A program made the position numbers and the translations under genes. A model generated the notes under the pieces. It did no database searches. It was not told the origin of the DNA and worked only from the letters and a program-made list of their open reading frames with translations. Positions 22,696 to 60,200 of a stretch of DNA of 64,000 bases are shown here, in pieces; positions within the stretch are counted from its first letter, which is position 1, and each line of letters starts with the position of its first letter. Source of the stretch: an uncultured Desulfobulbaceae bacterium (lineage in GTDB: Bacteria > Desulfobacterota > Desulfobulbia > Desulfobulbales > BM004); contig CALZHP010000001.1 in the NCBI GenBank assembly GCA_945787325.1, positions 73 to 64,072 on the forward strand, given 5' to 3'.

Positions 22696-23253
22696 TTACA
22701 GTAGAATTTTTTCTATATCTTTTCTTAGTGTGCTTTCTTTTGGCGGTCCAAAGTATTTTTTTATAACTTTTCCTTTTTGATCAATCAGGAAAGCGGTAGG
22801 AATGATCGATATCCCTCCGAACCTTTTTTCAATTTGACCGTTGGACAGAAGAACCGGGTAGATAACTTCTGCCTTGCGAATCATCTTCAAAACCATACTT
22901 CTATTTTCTTTTTCCACAGAAATACCGATTACAGTAAATTTTCTGTCTGCATATGAGTTTTGAACCCTGATTAATGTTTCCATCTCTTCCACACAGGCCC
23001 TGCACCAGAAAGTGAAAAAAGTTATGTATACTGCTTTGTCATTAAGAGAATCACTTGAATAATATGAGTCATTATCAATTAACTGCAATTTAAAACCGGG
23101 CATTGTCATATTAGTTGGGCTTTCGGAAGTCGAAACTGTTTGAGAGTCACTCAATGTATATTGGATCTGAGCATCGCTTCCGAAATCACATCCAGACAAA
23201 CAAACTGTTGTGATTATGGATAACAACAATATGCTAATTTTTTTTTGTTTCAC
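22696..23253 (-). CDS. TlpA/ResA-like thiol:disulfide oxidoreductase lipoprotein
   Basis: 185 aa. The lipobox is LSGC, and the thioredoxin-fold active site is FWCRAC. Confidence 0.8.
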   Translation of the reverse strand: MKQKKISILLLSIITTVCLSGCDFGSDAQIQYTLSDSQTVSTSESPTNMTMPGFKLQLIDNDSYYSSDSLNDKAVYITFFTFWCRACVEEMETLIRVQNSYADRKFTVIGISVEKENRSMVLKMIRKAEVIYPVLLSNGQIEKRFGGISIIPTAFLIDQKGKVIKKYFGPPKESTLRKDIEKILL

Positions 23254-23262
23254 GGCACCATC

Positions 23263-24489
23263 TCATTTCTTTATTTTATCTTCAGTAATGCCGTATTTTT
23301 CAAGAAGGCATTTAGGACAAACACCGTGTGAAAATAAGGCATCGGAATGATTACTTATGTAACTTTCAAGCTGGTTCCATGCTCCTTTTTCATCACGGAT
23401 ATTTTTACATAAAGTGCAAATTGGAATTATACCTTGTAGTTTCTTGATCTCATCAAGTGCTTGCTGTAATTCTTGAATCAATTCCTCTTTTTCCTTTTCG
23501 GCCTTTTTCCTCATGTTAATATCATCAATAGCTTTACGATATAGAATCAATACCGCAAGCCCGATGAAAACACTCAGTGCGATTATGGCTTTTCCTGCTA
23601 TTTTAAAAAAAGGGGTCGTGATTCTTTCCGAAACTGTCTGCAGGTCATGCAGGTAAATAACCCGCCATCCAGGCAGAGAGGAAATGTCATGCCTGTGAAT
23701 AATAAATTGGTCGCCTTTTATATTAGATGCATTATTGTCCTCATATTCGGCAATTCCAGTCCATTTCCAGGGGCCTTTGCCGAATTGTCTGGACAAAAAC
23801 AGTTCTTCTCGCTTTTCAGGAGTTATTTCCCACAAGACTTGAAACATCCATTCTTTCTTACCCGAAGCAAAAATCACCCCGGAATCTGAAACAAACATCA
23901 TAGTCCCCTGACGGTCCGGATCATCCATCTCAACATCAAGAAATTGTAGAGACATTTTGAAGACAACCACTCCAAGAATATCGCCGTCATTATTAAAAAC
24001 AGGTTGACCGTAGTAAATACCTCTTATCCCTGTTGTGACACCCAAAGCTAGGTAAATAGATGTATCACCTTTGATTGCTTGTTGAAAGTATGGTCTGAAT
24101 GCGTAGTTATTACCAACAAGACTATTAGGTTCAGCGTAATTAGATGAAGACAGCACATTACCGTCAGGGTCCATAAGATAAGCGAGACTTGCACCCATGG
24201 AATCCTGGATAAGTTTTAATTTTCTATTGGCTCCTCTAGTATTATCAATATCTGGACGTATTAATACGCTTTGAAAATCATCATATTCAGATAACTTTTT
24301 AGTCGGCTCTTTTAACTCGACAATATGCTTATCAATATGTGCAGCTACTGATATTGTTTTTGCTTCCGCGTTTTTATGGGAATCTTCCAGTGTTTGTTTT
24401 TTCAGCGAAGTATAATATAGATATCCACCTGTTATTGTAGAAAGGAAGGATAGTAGAGCTAGTACAAATATTATGGTTCTGAGTTTCAT
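23263..24489 (-). CDS. membrane sensor: TM / Cache-like extracytoplasmic domain / TM / coiled coil / C-terminal Cys-His-rich domain
   Basis: 408 aa. TM1 is IIFVLALLSFLSTITGGYLYY and TM2 is AIIALSVFIGLAVLILY. The roughly 260-aa extracytoplasmic region looks like a double-Cache domain. The C-terminus is IPICTLCKNIRDEKGAWNQLESYISNHSDALFSHGVCPKCLLEKYG. No kinase, GGDEF, MCP or HTH domain is present. Confidence 0.7.
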   Translation of the reverse strand: MKLRTIIFVLALLSFLSTITGGYLYYTSLKKQTLEDSHKNAEAKTISVAAHIDKHIVELKEPTKKLSEYDDFQSVLIRPDIDNTRGANRKLKLIQDSMGASLAYLMDPDGNVLSSSNYAEPNSLVGNNYAFRPYFQQAIKGDTSIYLALGVTTGIRGIYYGQPVFNNDGDILGVVVFKMSLQFLDVEMDDPDRQGTMMFVSDSGVIFASGKKEWMFQVLWEITPEKREELFLSRQFGKGPWKWTGIAEYEDNNASNIKGDQFIIHRHDISSLPGWRVIYLHDLQTVSERITTPFFKIAGKAIIALSVFIGLAVLILYRKAIDDINMRKKAEKEKEELIQELQQALDEIKKLQGIIPICTLCKNIRDEKGAWNQLESYISNHSDALFSHGVCPKCLLEKYGITEDKIKK

Positions 24490-24750: not shown

Positions 24751-25071
24751 TTAAGGTTTCAATTCTTTTGACATCCACTCTAAATAATCTGAATTCCCAT
24801 CCAATAAAGGCACAGACAATATTTCCGGTACATCATACGGATGTAATTTTTTAATAATTTGTTCAAGTTCAGTGAATAAGTCATCACGGCTTTTTATTAT
24901 GCACAAATATTCTTCGGAATTTTCAATTCTATCATTCCACCAATACATACTGGCGATAGGTCCAATAACCTGAATACATGCCGCATACCTTTTTTCGAGA
25001 ATACTTCGCGCAGTTCTTTCGGCGTCGGATTTTGTCTCAAAAGTAGTTATCACCTGTATATAATTTGTCAT
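24751..25071 (-). CDS. cutA: divalent-cation tolerance protein CutA
   Basis: 106 aa. AACIQV, MYWWNDRIE and HPYDVPEI motifs match the CutA1 family. Confidence 0.88.
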   Translation of the reverse strand: MTNYIQVITTFETKSDAERTARSILEKRYAACIQVIGPIASMYWWNDRIENSEEYLCIIKSRDDLFTELEQIIKKLHPYDVPEILSVPLLDGNSDYLEWMSKELKP

Positions 25072-38637: not shown

Positions 38638-40392
38638 TTAGATAGTCTGAGCCTCAACAAGTTGTTCAAGATTACTTTTGGCAAACTCTATTGATGGGTC
38701 AAGAGAAAGTGCCAGCTCAAAATACTTAATGGCCTCATCGTTCTTATTAAGTTTTCTATAATTAACACCAAGGTTAGCATAATCTATGGCAGAGGCTGGG
38801 TTAAGTTCAACGGTTTTACTGAAATGTGAAACAGCCGTTTCATATTCACCAAGCTTGAAGTGGCAGAATCCTAGCATATTATGAAGATCTGGGCGAGTGT
38901 TGTCCATAGCCGTTCCTTTTTCCAGAACAGTAATTGCTTCACTATATTGTTCCAGATCCTTAAGGCAATTACCCATGTAGGAGTAAATATAGGGCATGTC
39001 CTCTTCTTCAGGATTGAGCTGAAGTGTTTTTTTGAAATGCGCCATCGCTTCATCATGCATTCCTAAAGCAAGCTTATTGCGTCCCAGGTAGAATTCAATA
39101 TAATATGAATTAGGTTGAATCTTCTGAAGATTTAACAAGTGTTCATTGGATTCGACGGGATCTTTAACAAGTTCTGCCAAAAGTTTAGCCGCGAAAAGCC
39201 CCACGCTTTTACTTCTAGATCGCTCTCTGAAATGAGCCCCAGGTATAATTGTGTATATTGTTGGTATCCGCAGCTTTTCATGCATGGTATTCATGATATA
39301 TACATCCATATCAATTTTCTTAAGTGCTGCAAGACATCTATCAATCTCTGTTTTCATATTGTCATCGGTAAGATCATCCATATCCTGAAGATCTATAGTT
39401 TTGCCGGGATTAGTCAAGTACTCAACCTCATCCATACTCAACGGCTTAGGAAGCCCACTGGCCACATAATTAGCCTTGGTATTGAAGTCGCCGGCTAATT
39501 GCGCTACCTCAGTATAAGCCCTGATAAGTGATTTTTCAGGGTTGGGAGTAGTTCCTGCCGTGTAAACAATCTCACTAGTCATCGGAAAAGTGGATCTGTC
39601 GATCGCAAGAGCACCTATAGTCGGAATACCAGTGTCCAAAGAAAAATCGTTCAGGTAGACTTCAATGTTATGTTTCCTGAATTTGTTAATCAGTTCTTTG
39701 GAGACAGGATCATTAGCGGAATCAAGATTTATCAGCGGTGATTTTATTTCATCATGGCTAATTACAGCGCATACGTGACGCTCAACAATTTCACAAATAC
39801 CCTGACTTATAGCTTCTTCGTATGTATTGCCTGCGGAAGGACCATTAAATTCATTAATCGCATAGAACCATGAGAAAGGAATCAGTAACTCCTCTTCTTT
39901 GTTTAAATGAGTAACCCAGGTCCATTGAATTGGAATGTCGGCCAGCATTTTTTCAAGTGTTTCTTCATCAGTTGTCTCATCATGCACTGACTGCAGCATC
40001 TTTTTAAGAGGAAGAAGCGGATAACCCTGTGCTTTGAGATTGGGATATGTATCAGTGATAAAATTATCAGGATTTTTTATAAAACTGAAGAAACTGTAAC
40101 GTTCGGCAAGCTCCATACATGCACTTGCACGTGACTGTTCCGGTGTGCTTCCTTTTCCCATCTGTTTTTTATTGCCGATTGTCTCACGAGCGTCTTTTCC
40201 GGTAACACTGAAATAAACAGGTATATCAAGTCGTCCGTTATCAATGCGTCGCACCTCTTTGAGAATGTCAAGATCTACTTCCTTAAGCATCTTCATGAAA
40301 CGATCAACAGTTTCTACTGGCGACATTACCTTATCCTGATCGTATGTATAATGCTTAAAACAATCTTTTAATCTGATGGGCCTCTTTTCCAT
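38638..40392 (-). CDS. YcaO-domain protein fused to C-terminal TPR repeats
   Basis: 584 aa. YcaO motifs are RIDNGRLDIPVYFSV and SRASACMELAERYS. From about aa 430 there are 4-5 TPR-like repeats, for example YIEFYLGRNKLALGMHDEAMAHFKKTLQLNP and LGFCHFKLGEYETAVSHFSKTVELNP. Confidence 0.85.
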   Translation of the reverse strand: MEKRPIRLKDCFKHYTYDQDKVMSPVETVDRFMKMLKEVDLDILKEVRRIDNGRLDIPVYFSVTGKDARETIGNKKQMGKGSTPEQSRASACMELAERYSFFSFIKNPDNFITDTYPNLKAQGYPLLPLKKMLQSVHDETTDEETLEKMLADIPIQWTWVTHLNKEEELLIPFSWFYAINEFNGPSAGNTYEEAISQGICEIVERHVCAVISHDEIKSPLINLDSANDPVSKELINKFRKHNIEVYLNDFSLDTGIPTIGALAIDRSTFPMTSEIVYTAGTTPNPEKSLIRAYTEVAQLAGDFNTKANYVASGLPKPLSMDEVEYLTNPGKTIDLQDMDDLTDDNMKTEIDRCLAALKKIDMDVYIMNTMHEKLRIPTIYTIIPGAHFRERSRSKSVGLFAAKLLAELVKDPVESNEHLLNLQKIQPNSYYIEFYLGRNKLALGMHDEAMAHFKKTLQLNPEEEDMPYIYSYMGNCLKDLEQYSEAITVLEKGTAMDNTRPDLHNMLGFCHFKLGEYETAVSHFSKTVELNPASAIDYANLGVNYRKLNKNDEAIKYFELALSLDPSIEFAKSNLEQLVEAQTI

Positions 40393-41710: not shown

Positions 41711-41794
41711 AACAGGTATTTTAGTATAGTATCACCGTCGTAATTTTATTATCAGCAATTGGTTCTAAATAAAATAGATAAAGTTCAACCGGGG

Positions 41795-42220
41795 ATGTTC
41801 AAAGTGATCAGATTCAAGTGTCTACTCTTATTAAATATTATTTGTATTATAACCATATACGGTTGCAGCAATGTTCCCAAAAATGTAAGTGAAAAAAGTG
41901 AGAACGGCAGTTTCACAATCGAAATGCGAATGGAAAAGAAACTAAAGCAGGGGCCAAATAAAGTTGTATTATTCCTATCAGATGTTGACGACCACGCTGT
42001 TACCGATGCTGAGATATCTATAAAACCCTGGATGCCGTCAATGGGTCATGGGGTCATGTGGATTCCTAAGATAACCGAGAAAGGCAATGGTATCTATGAT
42101 GCCCTTATCATGCTAAATATGGGTGGTCACTGGGAACTTCAAATGGAAATAAAGAAAGATGCAGTTTCCGATAAGCTTGTTATGAATTTTCCAGAGGTGG
42201 AAGGTGAAAAAAAGAAATAA
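41795..42220 (+). CDS. YtkA/FixH-like domain lipoprotein
   Basis: The lipoprotein signal is MFKVIRFKCLLLLNIICIITIYGCS. The body (GPNKVVLFLSD..., KPWMPSMGHGVMW, GNGIYDALIMLNMGGHWELQMEI) matches the YtkA-like beta-sandwich pattern. The track ORF starts at a TTG at 41759. Confidence 0.6.
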   Translation: MFKVIRFKCLLLLNIICIITIYGCSNVPKNVSEKSENGSFTIEMRMEKKLKQGPNKVVLFLSDVDDHAVTDAEISIKPWMPSMGHGVMWIPKITEKGNGIYDALIMLNMGGHWELQMEIKKDAVSDKLVMNFPEVEGEKKK

Positions 42221-42226
42221 AATCGA

Positions 42227-43210
42227 TTAAATATTCTTAATTTTTTTTGCGTATTTCGGATAATATTTTTTCGCACATTCAGGGCACATACCGTGACTGA
42301 ATTCAGCTTCCGAATGCTCACGAATATATAATTCTATTTGATTCCAATACCCCTTATCATCTCGGATTTTCTTACAGGATGCACAGATCGGCAGATATCC
42401 GGACAACTTTTTTACTTCCTTTAATGCATTCTCTAGTTCAGCCGTCCTTTGACTAACAAGTTCTTCCAAGTGGTTCTGATAGTTGGAAACATCTGCTTCA
42501 GCTTTGCGTCTTCGGCGTCTTTCAGCCAAGCCCTTATTAATAATATACAATGACAAAAAAGCTATAATCAGAAGAATAACAAGCGAGATATAAGTAAGCC
42601 TTTTTGTAACCTTAGCTATTTCACTGTGTACATCATCGAAATAAACTCCAGTACCAATTATCCACTCCCAGGGGCTAAACAATTTCACAAACGAAACTTT
42701 TGCAACAATTTTTTCAGGTTCATCATTCCACTGCCATAAATATGGCAAAAATCCAGACCCACTTTTTTGGGCTGTACCAACCATATCGATAAAAGGGCGT
42801 TTACCGTTTGGATCAGAGTAATTTGTTAAGCTTTGCCCTTCGAGATCAGGTCTATATGGGTGCATAATCATTTTAGGACCCATATCATTGATCCAGAAAT
42901 AACTTTTCCCATCCGGGCCATACCGAACAGATCTTAAATGTTGAATCGCTGAATCCTGCGCATTTTCCATAGATAGATTGCCGGACACAACTTGCTGATG
43001 ATAATAATCCAGTGTATGCCATGCCGTCTGGACCAGCGTACTTGTCATAATCTTCTTCTGTTCCATAAGGTTTTCTTTTGAAGCAGGTAATAGTACAAAG
43101 AAAAGAGAAATAATAAACAGAACCACAGCAAGTAGAGATGGAAATATAATTTTTCCTATTTCGGAAAAAGAAAAGTTGTTTTCTGTATTTTTTAGCAAAG
43201 TAGATTCCAT
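42227..43210 (-). CDS. membrane sensor: TM / single Cache-like domain / TM / coiled coil / C-terminal Cys-His-rich domain (paralogous output to 23263..24489)
   Basis: 327 aa. TM1 is IIFPSLLAVVLFIISLFFVLL. The Cache-like region contains YFWINDMGPKMIMHPYRPDLEG. TM2 is LTYISLVILLIIAFLSLYII. The C-terminus is LPICASCKKIRDDKGYWNQIELYIREHSEAEFSHGMCPECAKKYYP. Confidence 0.7.
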   Translation of the reverse strand: MESTLLKNTENNFSFSEIGKIIFPSLLAVVLFIISLFFVLLPASKENLMEQKKIMTSTLVQTAWHTLDYYHQQVVSGNLSMENAQDSAIQHLRSVRYGPDGKSYFWINDMGPKMIMHPYRPDLEGQSLTNYSDPNGKRPFIDMVGTAQKSGSGFLPYLWQWNDEPEKIVAKVSFVKLFSPWEWIIGTGVYFDDVHSEIAKVTKRLTYISLVILLIIAFLSLYIINKGLAERRRRRKAEADVSNYQNHLEELVSQRTAELENALKEVKKLSGYLPICASCKKIRDDKGYWNQIELYIREHSEAEFSHGMCPECAKKYYPKYAKKIKNI

Positions 43211-43577: not shown

Positions 43578-45104
43578 TTGTTTAAATTTTTTCAAAAAAA
43601 ACTGAGTTGGACCATATTATCTATTCTCGCTCTCGCACTAGCCTTACCTCTCATAATACTTGTCTTTTTTTCTGCTTCTTATCAGGCCCGCAATATGATC
43701 TCGGAAATGACCACTTTCGGACACGACATTTTTCATACTGTGTATCAGGGTATTCAATATCCCATGGCCAAAGGTGACAGTGCTGCTGTGCGTTCACAAA
43801 TGGTTGATATGAACAATAAACTTAAAGATGTTTCTATTTTCATCTGCAACAATGACCAGGAGATCATTTATTCAACTAAAGAAGATATGATAGGCCAGAC
43901 AATTAAAAGCTCCGTGGTCGACAGTAGTATTTGGAATGAGCTTGTGTCCCGCAAAAACTCTCGTGAAGAGCTTACAAAATCCTTAGAAGAAACAAATGAC
44001 GGGAAAAAATATCTTACCACCGTTCACCTCATACGAAACAAGAGCAAATGCCATGAGTGCCACGGTTCAAAAAAAGAAATCCTTGGCGGCATGGTTGTTC
44101 AAATGGCAACAGACAGAACCTATAACGCCATTATGCAATATACCAGAAACAACCTCATCCTGGGGCTTCTGGGTATCACCCTGATAGTACTTGTTTTTTA
44201 TTTCCTGCTCTTCAAACTCGTTACTGAACCCATCAAAAAACTAGCTGGGTATATTAAAAATCTTCCGGAAGAGCTTGAAGAAGAACAGCTTGAACCAAGA
44301 GAAGTCGTAATACGGGAAGACGAGATAGGTTGTCTTGAGAAAAATTTTTATAAAATGCGTAAAGAAATCAGGGAAAAAAATGAAGCTATAAGAATCGCCA
44401 ATGAAGAGTTAATGACTTCCAATAAGGAACTTGAGGCCTTTGCGTATTCAGTTTCACATGACCTGCGGGCCCCACTCCGAAATATTGACGGTTTCTCAAA
44501 AATTTTACTTGATGAACATAGTGACAAACTTGATGGACAAGGCAAAAATTTCCTGAACAGGGTGAGAAACGGAACCGTAAAAATGTCACATTTGATTGAT
44601 GATATGCTTTCTTTTTCACGCGCTGGCCGTAAGGAAATGCAGAATATTAAGATTGATACTAATAAGATTGTCAATGAATGTCTGCGCGATTTCACCCAGA
44701 GCATCAGAGAAAAAGATATTGATGTAACGGTGGACGAAATGCCGGAAATATTCGGAGACATGTCTATGATCCAGCATATTTTTTCAAACCTGATTTCTAA
44801 CGCTGTCAAATATACACGAGAAACGAAACATCCTAAAATCAGCATAGGCTATAATGCGAAGGACAAGGCCTTCTACATTAAGGACAACGGTATAGGTTTT
44901 GATACAAAATATAACGACAAAATATTTCAGATATTTCAAAGACTCCATCTTCCTGAAGAGTATGAGGGAACCGGTGTAGGGCTTGCAATCGTTCAACGCC
45001 TTGTTGAAAGGCATAAAGGGGAAATCTGGGCAGAATCTGAACCTGGACATGGTTCAACTTTTTATCTGCGTCTGCCCTTAAACAAGCAGGCTCAATTAAC
45101 ATAG
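43578..45104 (+). CDS. sensor histidine kinase with extracytoplasmic CXXCH (heme c) domain, HAMP, HisKA, HATPase_c
   Basis: 508 aa with a TTG start. Two TM segments flank an extracytoplasmic domain of about 160 aa that ends in KCHECHGSKKEILGG (CXXCH at 44049..44063). The H-box is SHDLRAPL, and the G-boxes are DNGIGF and GTGVGL. Confidence 0.85.
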   Translation: MFKFFQKKLSWTILSILALALALPLIILVFFSASYQARNMISEMTTFGHDIFHTVYQGIQYPMAKGDSAAVRSQMVDMNNKLKDVSIFICNNDQEIIYSTKEDMIGQTIKSSVVDSSIWNELVSRKNSREELTKSLEETNDGKKYLTTVHLIRNKSKCHECHGSKKEILGGMVVQMATDRTYNAIMQYTRNNLILGLLGITLIVLVFYFLLFKLVTEPIKKLAGYIKNLPEELEEEQLEPREVVIREDEIGCLEKNFYKMRKEIREKNEAIRIANEELMTSNKELEAFAYSVSHDLRAPLRNIDGFSKILLDEHSDKLDGQGKNFLNRVRNGTVKMSHLIDDMLSFSRAGRKEMQNIKIDTNKIVNECLRDFTQSIREKDIDVTVDEMPEIFGDMSMIQHIFSNLISNAVKYTRETKHPKISIGYNAKDKAFYIKDNGIGFDTKYNDKIFQIFQRLHLPEEYEGTGVGLAIVQRLVERHKGEIWAESEPGHGSTFYLRLPLNKQAQLT

Positions 45105-45152
45105 ATATTTATAAGAGGATAGCCTCAATAACATTAAATCGAGGAGACCAGA

Positions 45153-45599
45153 ATGCATATGGATAATGCAAACGAGATTTTGTTGGTGGAAGACAACCCT
45201 GATGATGTTGAACTCGCTCTGCATGCTTTGAAACGAAATAATATCCTTAATCCTATTAAAGTTATGCGCGATGGTCAGGATGCTTTAGATTATCTGTTTA
45301 GTAAAGGTGAATTTGAAGGAATGGTTTCCTATCCTCCACAACTGATACTTCTCGATTTAAAATTACCGAAAGTTGACGGGATAGAGGTGCTTAGAAAAAT
45401 CAAAAAAGATGAAACACTGAAGAAAGTACCGGTTGTTGTTTTAACATCCTCCAAAGAGGAAAGGGACATTGTCGAAAGCTATGATCTGGGAGTTAACAGC
45501 TATATTAGAAAACCAGTTGATTTCGATCAATTTGTCGAGACAGTACGTTATATTGGATATTATTGGCTCTTACTCAACGAGGCACCGGATAAAAATTAA
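45153..45599 (+). CDS. single-domain response regulator (CheY-like receiver)
   Basis: 148 aa. ILLVEDNPDD, LILLDLKLPKVDG (phospho-accepting Asp), VLTSS and a conserved Lys in IRKP are present. Confidence 0.88.
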   Translation: MHMDNANEILLVEDNPDDVELALHALKRNNILNPIKVMRDGQDALDYLFSKGEFEGMVSYPPQLILLDLKLPKVDGIEVLRKIKKDETLKKVPVVVLTSSKEERDIVESYDLGVNSYIRKPVDFDQFVETVRYIGYYWLLLNEAPDKN

Positions 45600-45629
45600 A
45601 TCCAATCATTTTGCCTCCTATATATATTT

Positions 45630-47228
45630 ATGGAAGAAAATATTCGTCACATAAAGATTTTATTTCTTGAAGACAATCCTGATGACGTTGAGCTGGAACT
45701 TTATCAGCTGCGTAATAACAATTTTGAGGTTGAACACGACATTGCCAGGAACAAAAAAGAATTCATGGAAAGACTCCCGGACCTTCAGGCTGATATTATA
45801 ATCGCCGATTACTCACTACCCGATATAACAGGTATTGAGGCTATTCACATCCTCAAGGTTCATCTCATTGACATTCCTGTAATCCTTATAACCGGCGTGG
45901 GAAATGAACAAATTGCGGTTGACTCTCTTCGTGAAGGTGCAACTGACTATATCCTCAAAAAGAATATTACCGGCTTGTCGGCAAGAATTAACAGGGCCCT
46001 TGATGTCTGGGCCGACCGAAAAGCGGTGGAAAAGGTTCGTGAAGAAAAAAGAAACCTCCAAAGCCAGCTTTTCCAATCACAGAAACTTGAATCGGTTGGC
46101 AGGCTTGCCGGTGGTATCGCACATGACTTTAATAATATGCTCACCGCCATTATGGGCTATGCTGGACTGAGCCTCAAAACTCTGCAGGAAAACTCACCAC
46201 ACCATAAAAACCTGAAAACAATTACCGAAGTTTCCAAAAAGGCCGCCAACCTTGTTCAGAAACTGCTCCTGTTCAGTAAAAAGATCTCACTGGATCTCAA
46301 GCCTGTTGACATCAATGCGCTCATCACAAACAGCACGGATTTCATCAATCGAATGCTGGAGGAATCAATTGAAATCAAACTTGACCTGCAGGATGATCTA
46401 CCATGGGTCAACTCCGATGAAGGACAGCTCACACAAGTCCTCATTAATTTTGCGGTTAATGCCAGAGATGCCATGCAAGGCAAGGGAACCTTTATTATTA
46501 AAACTGAATCATTTAACGGTATTGAAAATCCCATAGCACAAACACCAGTTCAGAATATTGACGAATATATCCTTATGACAGTATCCGATACAGGATGCGG
46601 AATAACTGAAGAAAGCATTTCGAAGATATTTGATCCATTTTACACTACCAAAGATGTAGATAAAGGCACTGGTCTTGGCCTTTCAATAGTTTACTCTATT
46701 GTAGCTGGACATGGCGGATGGATTGATGTCACCAGTAAAGTGGACAGCGGCACAACCTTTAAAATTTACTTACCGAATATCGCCAGTAAGGATTCATCTG
46801 CTCATATAGCTGTTCTGGATTCACCGCTTGTGGCTTCACAGCTTATCAACAAGGGCAAGGAAACAATTCTTATCGCAGAAGATGAAGAAATTCTCAGGCA
46901 ATATACAATCGAGATGCTTACTGATATCGGTTACAATGTCCTGACTGCTCGAGACGGTGTTGAAGCTCTGGATCTTTTCAAAAAGTCACCTGAAAGTATC
47001 GATCTGATACTTTCCGATATGGTCATGCCGAACAAAACCGGCCTAGAACTTTTCCGTGATGTGAAAACCATCAAGCCGGATGTAAAATTCATCCTTGTTT
47101 CTGGCTATTGTATGGAACAGATTGATGGAGGTATACTCAGGGATATGCAGGCCATACTATTAAAACCGTATACTACAGAAAAAATCAGCAATCTTATCAG
47201 AAATGTTCTCGATGAAGTTCCTAATTAG
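45630..47228 (+). CDS. hybrid histidine kinase REC-HisKA-HATPase_c-REC
   Basis: 532 aa. The N-terminal receiver has IIIADYSLPDITG. The H-box is HDFNNMLTAI. The N- and G-boxes are NFAVNARDAM, DTGCGI and GTGLGLS. The C-terminal receiver has LILSDMVMPNKTG. Confidence 0.88.
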   Translation: MEENIRHIKILFLEDNPDDVELELYQLRNNNFEVEHDIARNKKEFMERLPDLQADIIIADYSLPDITGIEAIHILKVHLIDIPVILITGVGNEQIAVDSLREGATDYILKKNITGLSARINRALDVWADRKAVEKVREEKRNLQSQLFQSQKLESVGRLAGGIAHDFNNMLTAIMGYAGLSLKTLQENSPHHKNLKTITEVSKKAANLVQKLLLFSKKISLDLKPVDINALITNSTDFINRMLEESIEIKLDLQDDLPWVNSDEGQLTQVLINFAVNARDAMQGKGTFIIKTESFNGIENPIAQTPVQNIDEYILMTVSDTGCGITEESISKIFDPFYTTKDVDKGTGLGLSIVYSIVAGHGGWIDVTSKVDSGTTFKIYLPNIASKDSSAHIAVLDSPLVASQLINKGKETILIAEDEEILRQYTIEMLTDIGYNVLTARDGVEALDLFKKSPESIDLILSDMVMPNKTGLELFRDVKTIKPDVKFILVSGYCMEQIDGGILRDMQAILLKPYTTEKISNLIRNVLDEVPN

Positions 47229-54281: not shown

Positions 54282-57200
54282 CTACTTTTCAGCTTCTACC
54301 AATACTATGCTACCAGTCTCATCATGTTTAGTCCAAATCTTGTCATTATCAAATCCGGCACTTAGCATAATTTCCTGCATCTCATTTTCTGTACGGTACA
54401 CCAGCCACCAGTCAAGTAACCATTCCATTTTTGGTATGGATTGATGATCTGAGCGGTAATTGCTTGTCATCATGTGCATCCCAGGCCGACCACCTTGATG
54501 TACTGCCTCTATAATCGCTGTTGCAGCATCTTTCTCAAGGTATTCGATCAGTCCCATACATATGCAGACATCTACTTCTTCTGCTACTTCTTTAATGCGT
54601 GCAACACCTTGAGGAGAAATCAAATTATGTTTTTCGGTAACCAATGTTGCCCTTGGATCTACAAGGTTTTCCTTAACAAATCGAATGGCACGTTCATCCA
54701 AATCAAATCCAGTAATTGAAAAAGTAATGTCCGGCGCAGAATTTTCAATGACTGTTCTCTCAATTGCCATTGGACCGAAGCCGAGGTCCAACAACCTGAT
54801 ATGCTTCATACCCTTTTCTTCCATTATCGACCTGACTCTTTCAGCGACCCAGTAAGATCGCTGACGAACAGCTTCACTACCTATATTCTCGATAAAATTG
54901 CGGTCAAAATGGTATCCGATTCCTGTCGAAAAAAGTTGTTTATAAAACATCATATTCATCAAAAGATGATCACCTGGATACCCATACGGCTTTTCTAGCG
55001 TTCGTCGGAACACTTTTGAATCATGAAGATAATGTTTTATTTTCTCGTACATATAATTTCGTTTGTTCTTTAATTCTTCATCTGAAAAATGTTTTTCTAA
55101 TTCACTTAAAGATTCTACTGTTGTATCAAGTACAGAATTAAATATTTTGAAATGTTCTTCTGTATCAGGATGCTCAGGATCATTTTTGAAAAGTTCAATA
55201 CCAGCATCAAGTTTTCCAAAAAAGTTTTCCGCTATTTCATTAAATCTCTTTTCTGGCGATTTTGATAAAGATATATTTAAATTGTGAGAGTTATCTACTA
55301 GAGGATGTTGATCTATTCCCGGTTCATCAACTGCTACTGCCATTGCCTGAACGGTTTTTCCATTCTTTTCATTATAAAAAACTGTACTCAATAGATTAAC
55401 GTCGTTGCCGTCAAAATCACCTTTAAAAAGGTACCAGGGTCCACCAAGATGTGTTTTAAATTTAGGAACATGCCTTTTTAATGAATTTGACTTCTTACCT
55501 GCCTCTAAAAGAGACCAGACCCTGGTAGCAGTCTTGTCAAAAGGTTCCGAGGTTTTCGCTACAAGCTCACGTGCAAGGTGATAACCGTCTTCACCCAATA
55601 ATCCACGCCATGTTTCAGCATCGTGATTCTGTACAGTTTCGAAATCAAGTCCTATTGATGACGGACCAACCATGGCAATCGATTTTTCCGCATCATCAGC
55701 CAGACTCATACCTGTACTGTTCAGCACTTGTGCGCTAGGCTCGCTGTTTATGTGTAGATCAGGTTTTCCATCCGGTTGATGACGAATTGCGATATCGGTC
55801 GGATTTAGGTCCAGGTTATGTTGATCCCTGGCATATTGCACAGTGGCACGGCGCGTAGCAAGAAGGTTGGAAATTGCCGTAGTACGCCTTGATGCAGCAA
55901 TTTCCTTTTGAAAATACTCGAGTTCGTCACTTCTAATTTCATCATTATCAGTCAAGGATTCAACTTCTGTATGTTCGATAGCAGCCAGGCCAAATGATTC
56001 ACTTTCAAGAAAAGACTGTAGATCAGTTACAACACGTGACATTGGAATCTGAGGGTAAGGTTTCGCAACACTTATTCCCGCATTAGGAGCCTGCAGAATC
56101 AGTCCTTTTATTGTTTCCAGGATCTGTCCGTCTTCGTCGTATAGATTGATATTAGCACTGTAACGTTCAGCAGTTCGTTTTTGACCAATAACGTGACAAA
56201 TAATTCTGGAACCTGGTTTCATATTGCGGTATATACGAAGTTCATCCATTTCCACAGGGAGATACCCTGTAGGCATAAGAAGAGCACCGCTTTGCAGAGC
56301 AGAATCTCTTGCTGCAGGAGAGACCGTAAGAAGAGATTTGTTGGTTACGTTGCCGAAATACTTTTCATCTTCAGGCACCTTAATCTCTGTAATACTCTCA
56401 CTCGATGTTTCGAGTTTATAGATCGCACTTATCCTCCGCATAAACTTACCCTGAAAAAGAGGGGTCGGACTGAAATCCTCCGGGCTGACAGGTAGTTTTT
56501 CAGGCAAATTCGGACAGGAAGGAATTTGGGATACATGAGTGCTATCCGCACCGAAAATACAATCAGCTCGAAAATGATTTTCTCTAAAACCATCACCTTC
56601 AGAACGAATTGCCATTTTCACCCTTATCATTCCACTCGTTTGCGGATCAGCAACAGCCATCACACGCATTATAATTTTACTGTCAGCCGGGACTATCAAA
56701 GGACGCTTGAAACGGATACTTTGCAACACAGGATAATCATTTCTCCCGGTACATGCCTGAGCCGCTTCTACCATGGCTTCAATTGCCATTACTCCTGGAA
56801 ACAAAGGAGTGCCGTCAAAAACATGTTCTGAAATATATTTGTCTCTATCATGAGAAATTAATGTGTCTGCAACCAATTCGCCGGACGGGACCCAACGCTG
56901 TATCTTTTCAAGAAATCTACCTGCTGGTTTCTGAATTGGTGCAAAAAGAGTGGCCTCAAGCTCTGGGGTCATGCGTCCTATGATCAGGAAAGTGGATCCC
57001 AAGCAAGGCTGCCGGGTAAGCTTTATGTAGGAATCTATGCCTTCTTTGTTGCTGATAGGAGTGATTCCCTGCATTGCAAGAGATTCTACAGCACCCAGCC
57101 TTTTGCCAAGACCGGTTTCAGACCAGACGGAATATCCCAATGATAAACAATGTATATGGGGATAATAATGTAATACGCTTTGAACAGCGCCATTCAACCA

Positions 57201-60200
57201 GGCATTTGCATAGGTATAATCACTCTGGCCGATCATTCCGGTTGAACCAAGAATGGAGGAAATTACATGCAGTGCTTTTAATTTATCTAAGGAAACAGCA
57301 GATAAAATATTATAGAGGCCACGGGTTTTGACGTGAATATTAGCTAAACAGGATTCCAGGTCCATTTCTCGGAAGAGTTTTAATTGACTCAAACCGGCAC
57401 CATGCAGGATCCCTGTAATTTTACCCATACTCTGACTCACTTCAAGTACTGTTTTTTGTACCGCTTGCTGATCTGTTACATCACACTGAAAATACCTGTA
57501 GTGAATGCCTTCATTGTCATATCGCTGCAAATTTTGAAAGATTTCATTTTTCCGTTTTGATGATGTTTCAGCATCTACAAGGGGGGATGAGCCGAGTATT
57601 GCGAGTTTAACACCTGTACTACGGGATAATTCACGGGCAAGTTCAAAAGTAATTCCTTTTGCTCCTCCTGTTACAAGAAATGTGTCTGTATCGTTTAAAT
57701 GCAAAACTTCCTTCTCGTTGAACTCAGAAGGCTGCGCTACCATGGCCATGCGCTGGCCATCTTCAATAAAGTTGTATACCAGGCGTCCTGTTGCGACCTC
57801 CATTTCCTGCATGGCTGTTTCAGCCCACTGTTCAGCGGACCAGGAGTCTGGCAAAGAGACCCATTTAAAGTTTGCAGAAGGATATTCAAGGCACATTGAT
57901 TTCATAAAACCTGTTCCAGCCTCAAGGTCTATATCTGAGTTGTAATCATCAGATACAGGTCGCAATACAAGGCTGCGAAAACCGGACCAGCCAGATTCTA
58001 AAGTTTTATCCAATAGTTTATAACAATTGAAAAGATTCGAAATGAGTCCGTCTATACGAACGTCAAATTCCTCTGATGTGCAAGAGAAGAAAGCATTTTG
58101 ATTTTCCGGTAAGATAATAATCATGCCAATGAGATTATCTGGAAGTTGGTTTACTTCAAAAATAGATGAAAAATCGTAAAATACAGTTGATAGCCCTTTC
58201 CTGTTTAGTATATTTGAAAGGCTCTGATGCCTGTGAGATTCTGATTCACCGACCAGTAATACGGTACCTGCTGAAGGTAGAGGCAGGCTTTTCTCATGTG
58301 CAATTGGATAGAAATATGAGTTCATCTGGAAGTTACGAATATTATCGGGAATTATATTCTCCAGACTTATATAGTCAGTTCCGACTTCTTCTTTTTCAAT
58401 GCTCTTTTTTCTATCAATTTTTTTATTCTGAGCTTCGAGCTGCATTGCTTCAACCATCTCTGACAAAGGTGAATTAGCATATATCGAAGGATCATCTGCA
58501 AAATTTCCATTAAATTCTCGGGCAAGTACAATAGCAAGCTCACCAACTTTGATAGAGTCAAGATTAAGGTCATCACGAAGTTTCATTTCAGGCTGTATCG
58601 AATCAGGTGGAAATCCTGTGCGATCAGCTATACTTTTGATAGCAAATGTAAGTATATCACCCCTCAATGCAGGTTCGACTGGTTGCAATAATTCCTGTTC
58701 AGAAGCTACTTCATCAGATTCTGCAGCAGTATCGTCATGCTGTATATCTGGTTTAATAAATTCGGTAGGCAAGCTGCTGGGAAAGTTCTGATAATCCAGA
58801 GCAATATAATCTTTGAGAAATTGTTGGCGTCTGTTGAAATACGATTCAAAGAGTTCAGGGTTAATCCCTTCAGGTATTAATTTTTCTTCCAGCATGTTGA
58901 CAGGTTGAATTTTTTCAAGATGGCTGATATCAACTTGATTCTCACAAGGATTAGTAATAAATTGCGGATCATATGCTTCGACTGAGAACGGACGATGAAA
59001 TCTATGTTCAAAAAAATTATTTAAGTTGAGAGGAAACCCAAGAACATATGCCCTACCCAGTAATTCGTTCAATGGTTTTGAAGTGTCTGAATCGTTAGCA
59101 TCGGTGGGCATACAGGGACTGTTGATATTACCAAGGATATCTTTGACCAAATTGCTGAGGACCTGCCCCGGCCCTATTTCAATCCATAGGTCTGGTGAGT
59201 GAGCGGTTACTTCTTCAATAGCGTCTGTAAATCGTACAGGGTTTTGAATTTGTTGCCCAAGTAGTTTTTTTATGTCTTCCGAATTGGAAACTTCCATTCC
59301 GGTTGAAGTGGAAATTACCGTCCCATTTAAAGTTTGAAAATCTATGTCCCTCAAGCTTTCTAAAAAACTTTCAGAGGCAGGTGCTACAATATTTGAGTGG
59401 AAAGCATGTGAAACAGGAAGAATTGCACATTGAATATTTTGCTTTTTACACTCACCAGCCAAGGCCTCTATTGCTGCTGATGTTCCAGAAACAACCGTTT
59501 GTTTTAAGGAATTATAGTTAGAAATAATCGCCTTACCCATAAAAGGTTCAATAAGTATTTCAATATTTTTTGGGGTATCCGCAATTGCCAGCATGCCGCC
59601 GGGATCTTGTATATTCAGTGACGACATTGCATTACCACGTAGTGATGCAATTCTCACAGCAGTTTGTTCGTCATACACACCCATGGTATGAAATGCCGCA
59701 ATTTCACCAAGACTGTGTCCTACAGCGATATCGGGTTTAAGTCCCAAAAACTCCAGTACCTGAAGTATAGCAATGGATGTAAGGATAATTGCCGGTTGTG
59801 ATACTCGAGTATCTCGCAGGTTTGCACCGGCCTGATGGATGGTCTGTTCATTATGCGCAAATTGATCAATGAAAATAGAATCCATTAACCCTTCAGGCAT
59901 AACTGTAAAAACTGCATCTTCGCTGCTTTCATATAGTTCTTGAACAAAAGGAAATCTTCGTACTAAATCTTCACCCATATTGAATTTCTGACTTCCCTGT
60001 CCCGGAAAGAGTGCAACAGACTTAGGATTTTTTCTTGCTATCCCAGCAAAAATGCCTGCCGACTGGTTTTCAAGCTGGTTTATTTTCACACCTGAAACTA
60101 ATTTCAAGTGAATCAATTGGAGAGATTCTTCCAAGTCCCAAGGAGATTCGCAGACTATTGCCAGCCGGAGCTTACCTCCCATTGGTTCTTTGGTTAATGC

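Follow-up and report, generated by a model that had tools for sequence, protein, structure and literature searches.

A Cys4-His module as candidate output domain of two Cache-type sensors from an uncultured Desulfobulbaceae bacterium

Introduction

Bacterial sensing usually ends in phosphotransfer, cyclic nucleotides, methyl-accepting arrays or DNA binding. The present study concerns a small Cys4-His module that forms the C-terminus of two membrane sensors encoded in 64,000 nucleotides of contig CALZHP010000001.1 (assembly GCA_945787325.1) from an uncultured Desulfobulbaceae bacterium; this whole stretch is called the window hereafter, and all coordinates of its genes are window positions. Like the module, kinase and GGDEF transmitters are placed C-terminally, after Cache and transmembrane (TM) segments, HAMP, PAS, GAF or receiver (REC) domains. 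They are joined to these inputs by a fixed-register helical linker and are found on the same dCache_1 sensors. The module differs from them in its size of only about 45 to 65 residues, in having no nucleotide-binding or catalytic fold and in showing no sequence or fold similarity to them.

The closest analogue in the literature is HalOD2. Predicted to be a Zn finger, it is an output domain of the response regulators of a few halobacteria, in which a HalX-like helical region is followed by two CXXC motifs 20 to 25 residues apart (Galperin et al. 2018, PMC5847659). Compared by description only, HalOD2 and the module are both REC-linked, with a helical N-terminal part, two C-terminal CXXC motifs and no assigned function, whereas the module has an invariant spacing of 29 residues, is bacterial and follows many types of input.

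Other small metal sites offer partial parallels. The Fe(Cys)4 site of rubredoxin has the identical ligand pattern, C-x2-C-x29-C-P-x-C, but the module lacks the Gly after the knuckles, gives no rubredoxin match in Pfam at E ≤ 10 and has an intervening segment that is predicted to be helical and not β/loop. ZAS anti-sigma factors (zf-HC2, H-x3-C-x2-C) also use a small Cys/His site for regulatory protein contacts, with a His just before a CxxC; the module instead has S-H-G-x-C-P-x-C, that is H-x2-C-x2-C, and no zf-HC2 match in Pfam. In DksA/TraR, a small C4 finger adjoining a coiled coil serves regulatory protein-protein contacts. DksA has 17 residues between its Cys pairs, against the invariant 29 of the module, which has no Pfam match to this family, and the predicted topology of the module differs from both ZAS and DksA/TraR. 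CZB, finally, is likewise C-terminal in bacterial signalling proteins, where it is associated with zinc. It acts as a sensor and consists of about 150 residues folded into a four-helix bundle that carries a 3His/1Cys site, and no Pfam CZB match was found on module proteins.

Results

Two Cache-type sensors of the window end in the same module

The two sensor genes and their parts are located as follows.

23263 to 24489, minus strand: sensor 1 gene (408 aa), an open reading frame (ORF) with the order TM, dCache_1, TM, helix, Cys4-His module; 693 homologues at E ≤ 1e-10
24415 to 24489, minus strand: residues 1-25 of sensor 1, N-terminal hydrophobic segment, TM1 or signal anchor (Kyte-Doolittle scan)
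23656 to 24393, minus strand: residues 33-278 of sensor 1, extracytoplasmic dCache_1 (Pfam PF02743, E=1.1e-14, 55 bits against a cut-off of 45)
23524 to 23613, minus strand: residues 293-322 of sensor 1, second hydrophobic segment, TM2 (Kyte-Doolittle scan)
23434 to 23487, minus strand: residues 335-352 of sensor 1, conserved helix leading into the module, EELIQELQQALDEIKKLQ (conservation; helix in the AlphaFold2 models)
23290 to 23433, minus strand: residues 353-400 of sensor 1, Cys4-His core (C358, C361, H388, C391, C394), AlphaFold2 mean pLDDT (predicted local distance difference test) 85-90
42227 to 43210, minus strand: sensor 2 gene (327 aa), with the order TM, sCache_2, TM, helix, Cys4-His module (ORF; Pfam)
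42605 to 43069, minus strand: residues 48-202 of sensor 2, extracytoplasmic sCache_2 (Pfam PF17200, E=3.9e-39, 134.5 bits against a cut-off of 25)
42401 to 42454, minus strand: residues 253-270 of sensor 2, conserved helix before the module, SQRTAELENALKEVKKLS (alignment and conservation)
42257 to 42400, minus strand: residues 271-318 of sensor 2, Cys4-His core (first Cys C276, last Cys C312; motif scan and alignment)

Both proteins are of the Cache type, each having a Pfam Cache model above its gathering score and two flanking hydrophobic segments, which in sensor 2 are residues 13-48 and 198-230 on either side of sCache_2. A charged helix links TM2 of sensor 1 to its Cys/His tail. The minus strand of 23263 to 23430 translates to IIPICTLCKNIRDEKGAWNQLESYISNHSDALFSHGVCPKCLLEKYGITEDKIKK followed by a stop, the C-terminus of the 408-aa ORF, and the C-terminal tail of sensor 2 is LPICASCKKIRDDKGYWNQIELYIREHSEAEFSHGMCPECAKKYYP. 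An alignment of the two tails over 68 residues shows 56% identity, with all four Cys and both His among the 38 identical columns. Their common pattern, P-I-C-x2-C-K-x-I-R-D-[DE]-K-G-x-W-…-H-S-x-A-x-F-S-H-G-x-C-P-x-C, occurs exactly twice in the window by six-frame regular-expression scan, once in each sensor. No kinase, cyclase, phosphodiesterase, methyl-accepting chemotaxis protein (MCP) or DNA-binding family of Pfam-A or NCBIfam matched either protein. The original prediction, made by reading the DNA, had described a TM-Cache-TM-helix sensor and two nearly identical Cys/His tails, and this description proved accurate by coordinates, Pfam, alignment and motif scan. Apart from the module neither sensor has a candidate output domain, and the module behaves as a transmitter.

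The module occupies the output position and is swapped with known outputs

A scan of one genome per species found more than 583 loci that encode the module, and the best 80 were kept for analysis. In most of these 80 loci the module sits 7 to 30 residues from the C-terminus of the protein. Pfam assigned PAS to 32, REC to 22, HAMP to 7, dCache_1 to 7 and GAF to 6 of 85 host proteins, with Reg_prop/Y_Y_Y, SBP_bac_3 and TPR as rarer companions, and a set of 112 cluster representatives added the inputs MASE6 (18 proteins), PocR and HisKA_7TM. No enzymatic or DNA-binding output family appeared among the 25 families listed for the 85 hosts, nor among those of the 112 representatives.

The same Cache domain was also found with other outputs. 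Among the 120 best homologues of the sensor 1 Cache domain, 45 end in the module, with dCache_1 shared at 32-54% identity; of the remaining homologues listed, some have HATPase_c together with HisKA or HisKA_3, some have GGDEF, and some have sensor domains only (partial sequences among them). The module is therefore interchangeable with kinase and cyclase (GGDEF) domains on homologous sensors. It shows the properties of the transmitter class: it lies C-terminal to diverse inputs, can be swapped with known outputs and is fused to REC with kinases nearby. The earlier claim that the Cys/His tail is the only output domain of its sensor stands, since the hosts carry inputs only and Cache homologues exchange the module for kinase or GGDEF domains.

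Proteins made of a coiled coil and the module alone exist, namely P0067 (105 aa, two assemblies) and P0071 (98 aa), whose gene follows cheB in a chemotaxis operon. The module is thus autonomous, in that it occurs with a coiled coil alone. At locus L081 (5001 to 5297), a 98-aa coiled coil-module protein is encoded by the last gene of a cheW–MCP–cheR–cheD–cheB operon; genes for GAF–HD-GYP, GGDEF and HDOD proteins lie downstream, and its N-terminus, MKDESxTKEQ, is common to P0067.

Several further arrangements were observed. Two modules are present in P0121-P0153 (for example P0122, P0125 and P0130), where the unit of multi-TM sensor, helix and module is duplicated in tandem within one ORF. P0177 has the order REC–module–REC, and loci L048 and L055 each contain three consecutive module genes. 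At L084 (3680 to 4282), recurrent calls of about 93 aa really belong to a small membrane protein of about 200 aa, truncated by gene callers, in which a His-rich hydrophobic segment (HPIIHIISVFHFHTGHS) is followed by a helix and the module. Some small matches that seemed to stand alone were rejected as frameshift-split or truncated gene calls. In two metagenome-assembled genomes (MAGs) with long contigs, the PAS part and the module part form overlapping ORFs (L082, 4460 to 5342; L083, 4777 to 5360), which resemble the products of frameshift errors more than genuine small genes.

The module is coupled to two-component proteins and follows a linker of fixed register

The largest protein cluster of the loci, with 41 members in 36 loci, consists of REC–module proteins about 230 aa long, which retain the phospho-acceptor Asp and the Lys of the KP motif. 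In 18 loci a family of large proteins is encoded nearby, at a median distance of 370 bp; the single member that was scanned proved to be a hybrid histidine kinase of the order PAS-HisKA-HATPase_c-REC. A Pfam census of 61 same-strand neighbours gave REC, PAS, HATPase_c, HisKA and Hpt as the only recurring families. Neither this census nor the clustering of 795 neighbour ORFs revealed a conserved partner gene, two-component proteins being the only ones that recur. These data show the module coupled to REC and histidine kinases.

The distance from input to module is also constrained. From the PAS 'DIT' motif to the first Cys there are exactly 35 residues, or five heptads, in 125 of 141 non-redundant sequences, and in 127 of the 141 the distance is in phase 0 modulo 7. 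The spacing between the REC Lys and the first Cys was 48 (8 cases), 55 (4 cases) or 90 residues (one case), with steps of 7 and 42. Fixed, heptad-phased linkers are a hallmark of signalling-helix coupling to kinases and cyclases. The linker is of fixed length, with rigid helical coupling of the inputs to the module. The host proteins are modular bacterial sensors and response regulators with a helix-coupled C-terminal output, of which the output domain itself is uncatalogued.

The family is large, bacterial and strongly conserved

The module is a real domain of about 65 residues, composed of a conserved helix and a C-x2-C-x29-C-x2-C core. A family profile of 50 columns, built from 20 tails, matched 23,409 of 1.84 billion cluster representatives (clusters at 50% identity) at E ≤ 1e-3, of which 18,849 also passed E ≤ 1e-10, and the tail of sensor 2 as query gave more than 1,100 homologues at 70-88% identity. 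The closest named homologues of sensor 1 come from Desulfobacterales-type MAGs; a related sequence is present in a marine-sediment metagenome run.

The best 80 genome loci span about 15 bacterial phyla. They include Desulfobacterota (many orders), Acidobacteriota, Nitrospirota, Nitrospinota, Ignavibacteria and Gemmatimonadota, as well as Verrucomicrobiota, Lentisphaerae, Kiritimatiellia, Chloroflexota, Hydrogenedentota, Latescibacterota, Poribacteria, Aminicenantes and others. The original prediction had placed similar tails in sulfate reducers and spirochaetes. The former are indeed a main home of the module among these loci, and no spirochaete locus was found among the best 80 of more than 583. 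Viruses are nearly devoid of the module (2 loci in 2.9 million contigs), and 72,556 plasmids gave a single match, a remnant flanked by insertion sequences (IS). This unannotated remnant (L087, 5001 to 5138; plasmid NZ_CP028898.1 of Dongshaea marina) has 54% identity and is enclosed by transposase genes of IS21 and IS91.

The four Cys and the His of the SHG motif are invariant in 85 full-length proteins, including divergent paralogues such as that at L055, so that, of the positions on which the original prediction depended, the Cys and the SHG His are conserved across homologues. The consensus of 376 distinct cores reads LPIC-x2-CKKIRDDKGYW-x-QIE-x-YI-x2-HSEAEFSHGICP-x-C-x2-KLYP, and the gap between the CxxC pairs is 29 in 389 of 389 occurrences, although gaps of 20 to 36 were permitted. 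In a sample that favours high-scoring matches, so that the percentages are upper estimates, about 30 of the 45 core positions are at least 80% conserved, and the SHG His (position 31 from the first Cys) is found in 93% of the 376 cores and in 100% of the 85 proteins. The first His (in HS[DE]A, position 24) is not a strict ligand candidate, because only about 88% of the 376 cores carry it. Upstream of the core, hydrophobic residues are conserved at positions -19, -16, -13, -12, -9 and -6 relative to the first Cys, as is a Gly at -4, and the preceding helix therefore belongs to the module unit. The leader helix of sensor 1 has the conserved pattern I/L/A/L/V/L at positions -19 to -6.

Predicted fold and putative metal site

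AlphaFold2 modelled the core alone with a mean pLDDT of 85.3. For the helix plus core (122 aligned sequences) the best model reached 89.9, and the other four 68-75. In both predictions a helix precedes a β-α-α-β-α unit, and each of the two CxxC motifs lies where a strand passes into a helix. The suggestion of a zinc-ribbon-like fold did not survive, since the CxxC motifs are not placed on β-hairpin knuckles in these models and no zinc-ribbon family of Pfam matched above its cut-off; the best of them, DZR_2, gave E=0.014-0.05, far below the cut-off. The transmitter role proposed with that fold and the lack of an assigned function were both upheld. HNH and treble-clef readings of the motif were rejected on the predicted topology.

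The four Cys are most likely the site of a single structural metal ion, which is probably Zn(II). Metal binding is suggested by the Cys4 pattern, and Zn is the default metal for such sites. Iron is possible, as the ligand pattern equals that of rubredoxin, yet no rubredoxin profile matched and the predicted secondary structure differs.

The module has no match in catalogues, structures or literature

The module belongs to no catalogued family in the collections searched. Its tails had no match in Pfam-A (2025 copy) or NCBIfam 20.0, and ten diverse tails compared with Pfam at E ≤ 10 gave only noise far below the cut-offs (NMD3, DUF3039, DZR_2, CxC5 and the ClpX finger). A PF23545 match in 2 of the 112 representatives was set aside: it was absent from the ten scanned tails and was attributed, by exclusion and not by locating it directly within these two proteins, to another part of both.

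A profile search of PDB sequences gave nothing significant, the best hit (E=0.055) covering 25 residues of an unrelated membrane protein. This hit, residues 17-41 of 7yjw_A (330 aa, 'Membrane protein'), weakly matches the first half of the motif, IPICLVCK-IREEKGTYKNLEE, probably by chance. Foldseek found no match in the PDB at E ≤ 0.001 for either AlphaFold2 model. Full-text literature searches with motif strings and keyword combinations found no description of the module, and the text of a survey of Desulfovibrio vulgaris regulators mentions neither zinc nor cysteine, nor an unknown, absent or novel output. In the source records the proteins are labelled only 'hypothetical protein', 'PAS domain S-box protein' or similar. 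The motif thus maps to no characterised domain, and the statement that it has no assigned function agrees with Pfam, NCBIfam, the PDB and the full-text literature searched.

Genes beside the sensors

The window is an ordinary chromosomal stretch (39.8% G+C) whose gene content includes topoisomerase IV-type subunits, ThiD, CoaX, GltB and a large protein resembling polyketide synthases. The genes next to the sensors, of which the first three are small and envelope- or metal-related, are the following.

22696 to 23253, minus strand: Redoxin/TlpA-like lipoprotein gene, starting 10 bp after the sensor 1 stop (Pfam Redoxin, E=4.3e-16)
24751 to 25071, minus strand: CutA1 gene, upstream of sensor 1
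41759 to 42220, plus strand: YtkA-like gene, convergent with sensor 2
43578 to 45104, plus strand: histidine kinase with Mcp40H-20-like sensor, in a two-component cluster (43578 to 47228) divergent from sensor 2
45153 to 45599, plus strand: stand-alone receiver of the same cluster
45630 to 47228, plus strand: hybrid kinase with two receiver stretches, of the same cluster

The redoxin gene is possibly an operon mate of sensor 1 in this genome only, and it is not kept in the two closest orthologue neighbourhoods of sensor 1. As a functional partner of the sensor it was dropped, since the orthologue neighbourhoods examined lack it, and for the same reason the redoxin, CutA1 and YtkA-like genes are all treated as local neighbours.

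Two other genes of the window may be mentioned. A 2,498-aa multidomain synthase with KS, AT, KR and DH domains (54282 to 61778, minus strand) resembles polyketide or polyunsaturated-fatty-acid synthases, and a 584-aa protein (38638 to 40392, minus strand) has a YcaO cyclodehydratase-type domain fused to C-terminal TPR repeats.

Discussion

We propose, tentatively and at somewhat short of an even chance, that the module is a self-contained output domain of about 65 residues which is stapled by a metal, coupled through a helix and engages a shared, conserved partner. A ligand would be bound by the periplasmic Cache domain, and the signal would travel through TM2 and the rigid, fixed-register helical linker, as in histidine kinases and diguanylate cyclases. 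The change in helix register would re-orient or re-pair the C-terminal modules of a sensor dimer, and the module would in this way engage or release a downstream component, probably one shared conserved protein or complex and not gene-specific DNA. The sensors would be dimers by analogy with the helix-coupled transmitters.

A shared protein partner is favoured over DNA as target for several reasons. The core is not basic (mean net charge -0.5), and about 30 of its 45 positions, including a dozen polar ones, are conserved across phyla and paralogues, which leaves no room for the diversification of targets. A large fraction of the hosts is membrane-anchored. Finally, no partner gene accompanies the module, as would be expected for a global target encoded elsewhere.

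Some points weigh against this proposal. The metal, the dimeric state and the kind of partner are inferred and not observed. The invariant His and the conserved Asp-Asp, Glu and Ser, together with the rubredoxin-like spacing, would also fit iron, an additional metal site or a catalytic centre of small size. Close relatives of the query are enriched in the samples behind the linker and conservation statistics, so that the regularity may be overstated. The lack of Foldseek matches to the models would be weak evidence for a new fold, because very small domains match poorly. A unit of 45 residues could still bind nucleic acid, and DNA or RNA binding was predicted for the REC-linked double-CXXC domain HalOD2 (PMC5847659).

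This last prediction also lends weight to the first of the other explanations, in which the module is a zinc finger that binds DNA or RNA. The REC–module proteins would then regulate transcription or RNA, and the membrane sensors would be tethered regulators of the ToxR type. The REC–module genes adjoin histidine kinases, as those of classical DNA-binding regulators do, and a basic patch, C-K-K-I-R, is conserved after the first CxxC. We consider this explanation unlikely, since the core as a whole carries the slightly negative charge given above, no DNA-binding Pfam family matches the tails, and an identity of about 60-85% across phyla and paralogues leaves little scope for differing target sequences. 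Many hosts, moreover, are membrane proteins with Cache, HAMP, MASE6 or 7TM inputs. Such a range of inputs is typical of kinase, cyclase and MCP outputs and less so of DNA-binding ones.

According to a second explanation, the Cys4-His site (Zn-thiolate, rubredoxin-like Fe or Fe-S) would be a redox- or metal-responsive switch, a second input that gates the N-terminal sensor or integrates the redox or metal state of the cytoplasm with it. In the models the two CxxC motifs appear at helix N-termini, which would be the geometry of the reactive cysteines of thioredoxin-type proteins, and the spacing equals that of Clostridium pasteurianum rubredoxin, a likeness of pattern that does not rest on homology. 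Phyla rich in anaerobes are enriched in the family, and redoxin, CutA1 and YtkA-like proteins are encoded beside the sensors of the window. These redox- or metal-related neighbours are, however, not retained in the orthologue neighbourhoods examined, and neither rubredoxin nor any Fe-S family of Pfam matches the module, in which the Gly found after each knuckle of rubredoxin is missing. The architecture, too, hardly suits a sensing role: the module replaces kinase or GGDEF domains on the same sensor, and as an input only it would leave the host proteins without any output. A redox-responsive role is less likely, and we regard it as quite improbable.

The module could also be no more than a structural cap, a zinc-hook-like dimer clamp on the coiled coil, in proteins that heterodimerise with other sensors or titrate them. 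Its very small size, its constant position behind a coiled-coil helix and the absence of a partner gene would suit such a role. Conservation across phyla nevertheless reaches well past the Cys and the hydrophobic core, to some dozen polar positions (K, K, R, D, D, G, E, H, S, S, H), coiled coil-module proteins exist without any sensor, and a real output is implied by the REC–module regulators that have a cognate kinase; there is accordingly little to expect from this explanation. A minimal catalytic centre, in which the dimeric module would form a tiny metallo-enzyme or phosphotransfer site from His388 with Asp, Glu and Ser, would account for the invariant His beside the metal site, for the conserved D-D, E and S and for the occupation of a slot usual for enzymes in these architectures, but it is highly improbable in view of a length of 45 residues, far below that of known signalling enzymes, of the lack of similarity to any catalytic family (PDB, Foldseek, Pfam) and of the absence of a co-encoded ATPase or substrate-related gene among the same-strand neighbours.

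If the module is indeed an output domain with a shared partner, as proposed above, the near-identical modules of thousands of PAS, Cache, REC, HAMP and MASE sensors from at least 15 phyla might converge on one conserved hub of the cell, such as the machinery of transcription, translation or proteolysis, or a novel adaptor. Such an unrecognised signalling route is a doubtful but conceivable extension of our proposal; that it would add a third general mode of output to phosphotransfer and nucleotide second messengers is to be taken with the same reserve.

The module probably represents an unexplored mode of signal output for bacterial sensors. More than 23,000 clusters carry it, mostly in environmentally important and poorly studied phyla such as the sulfate reducers, Acidobacteriota and Nitrospirota, and many entries called 'PAS domain protein', 'response regulator' or 'hypothetical' consequently carry an output that nobody can read. 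A clean experimental handle is at hand in the 65-residue fragment, its five invariant residues and the natural coiled coil-module proteins. Once the metal, the structure and the partner are defined, a large block of microbial signalling could be annotated at once, and a new transmission mechanism might be revealed.

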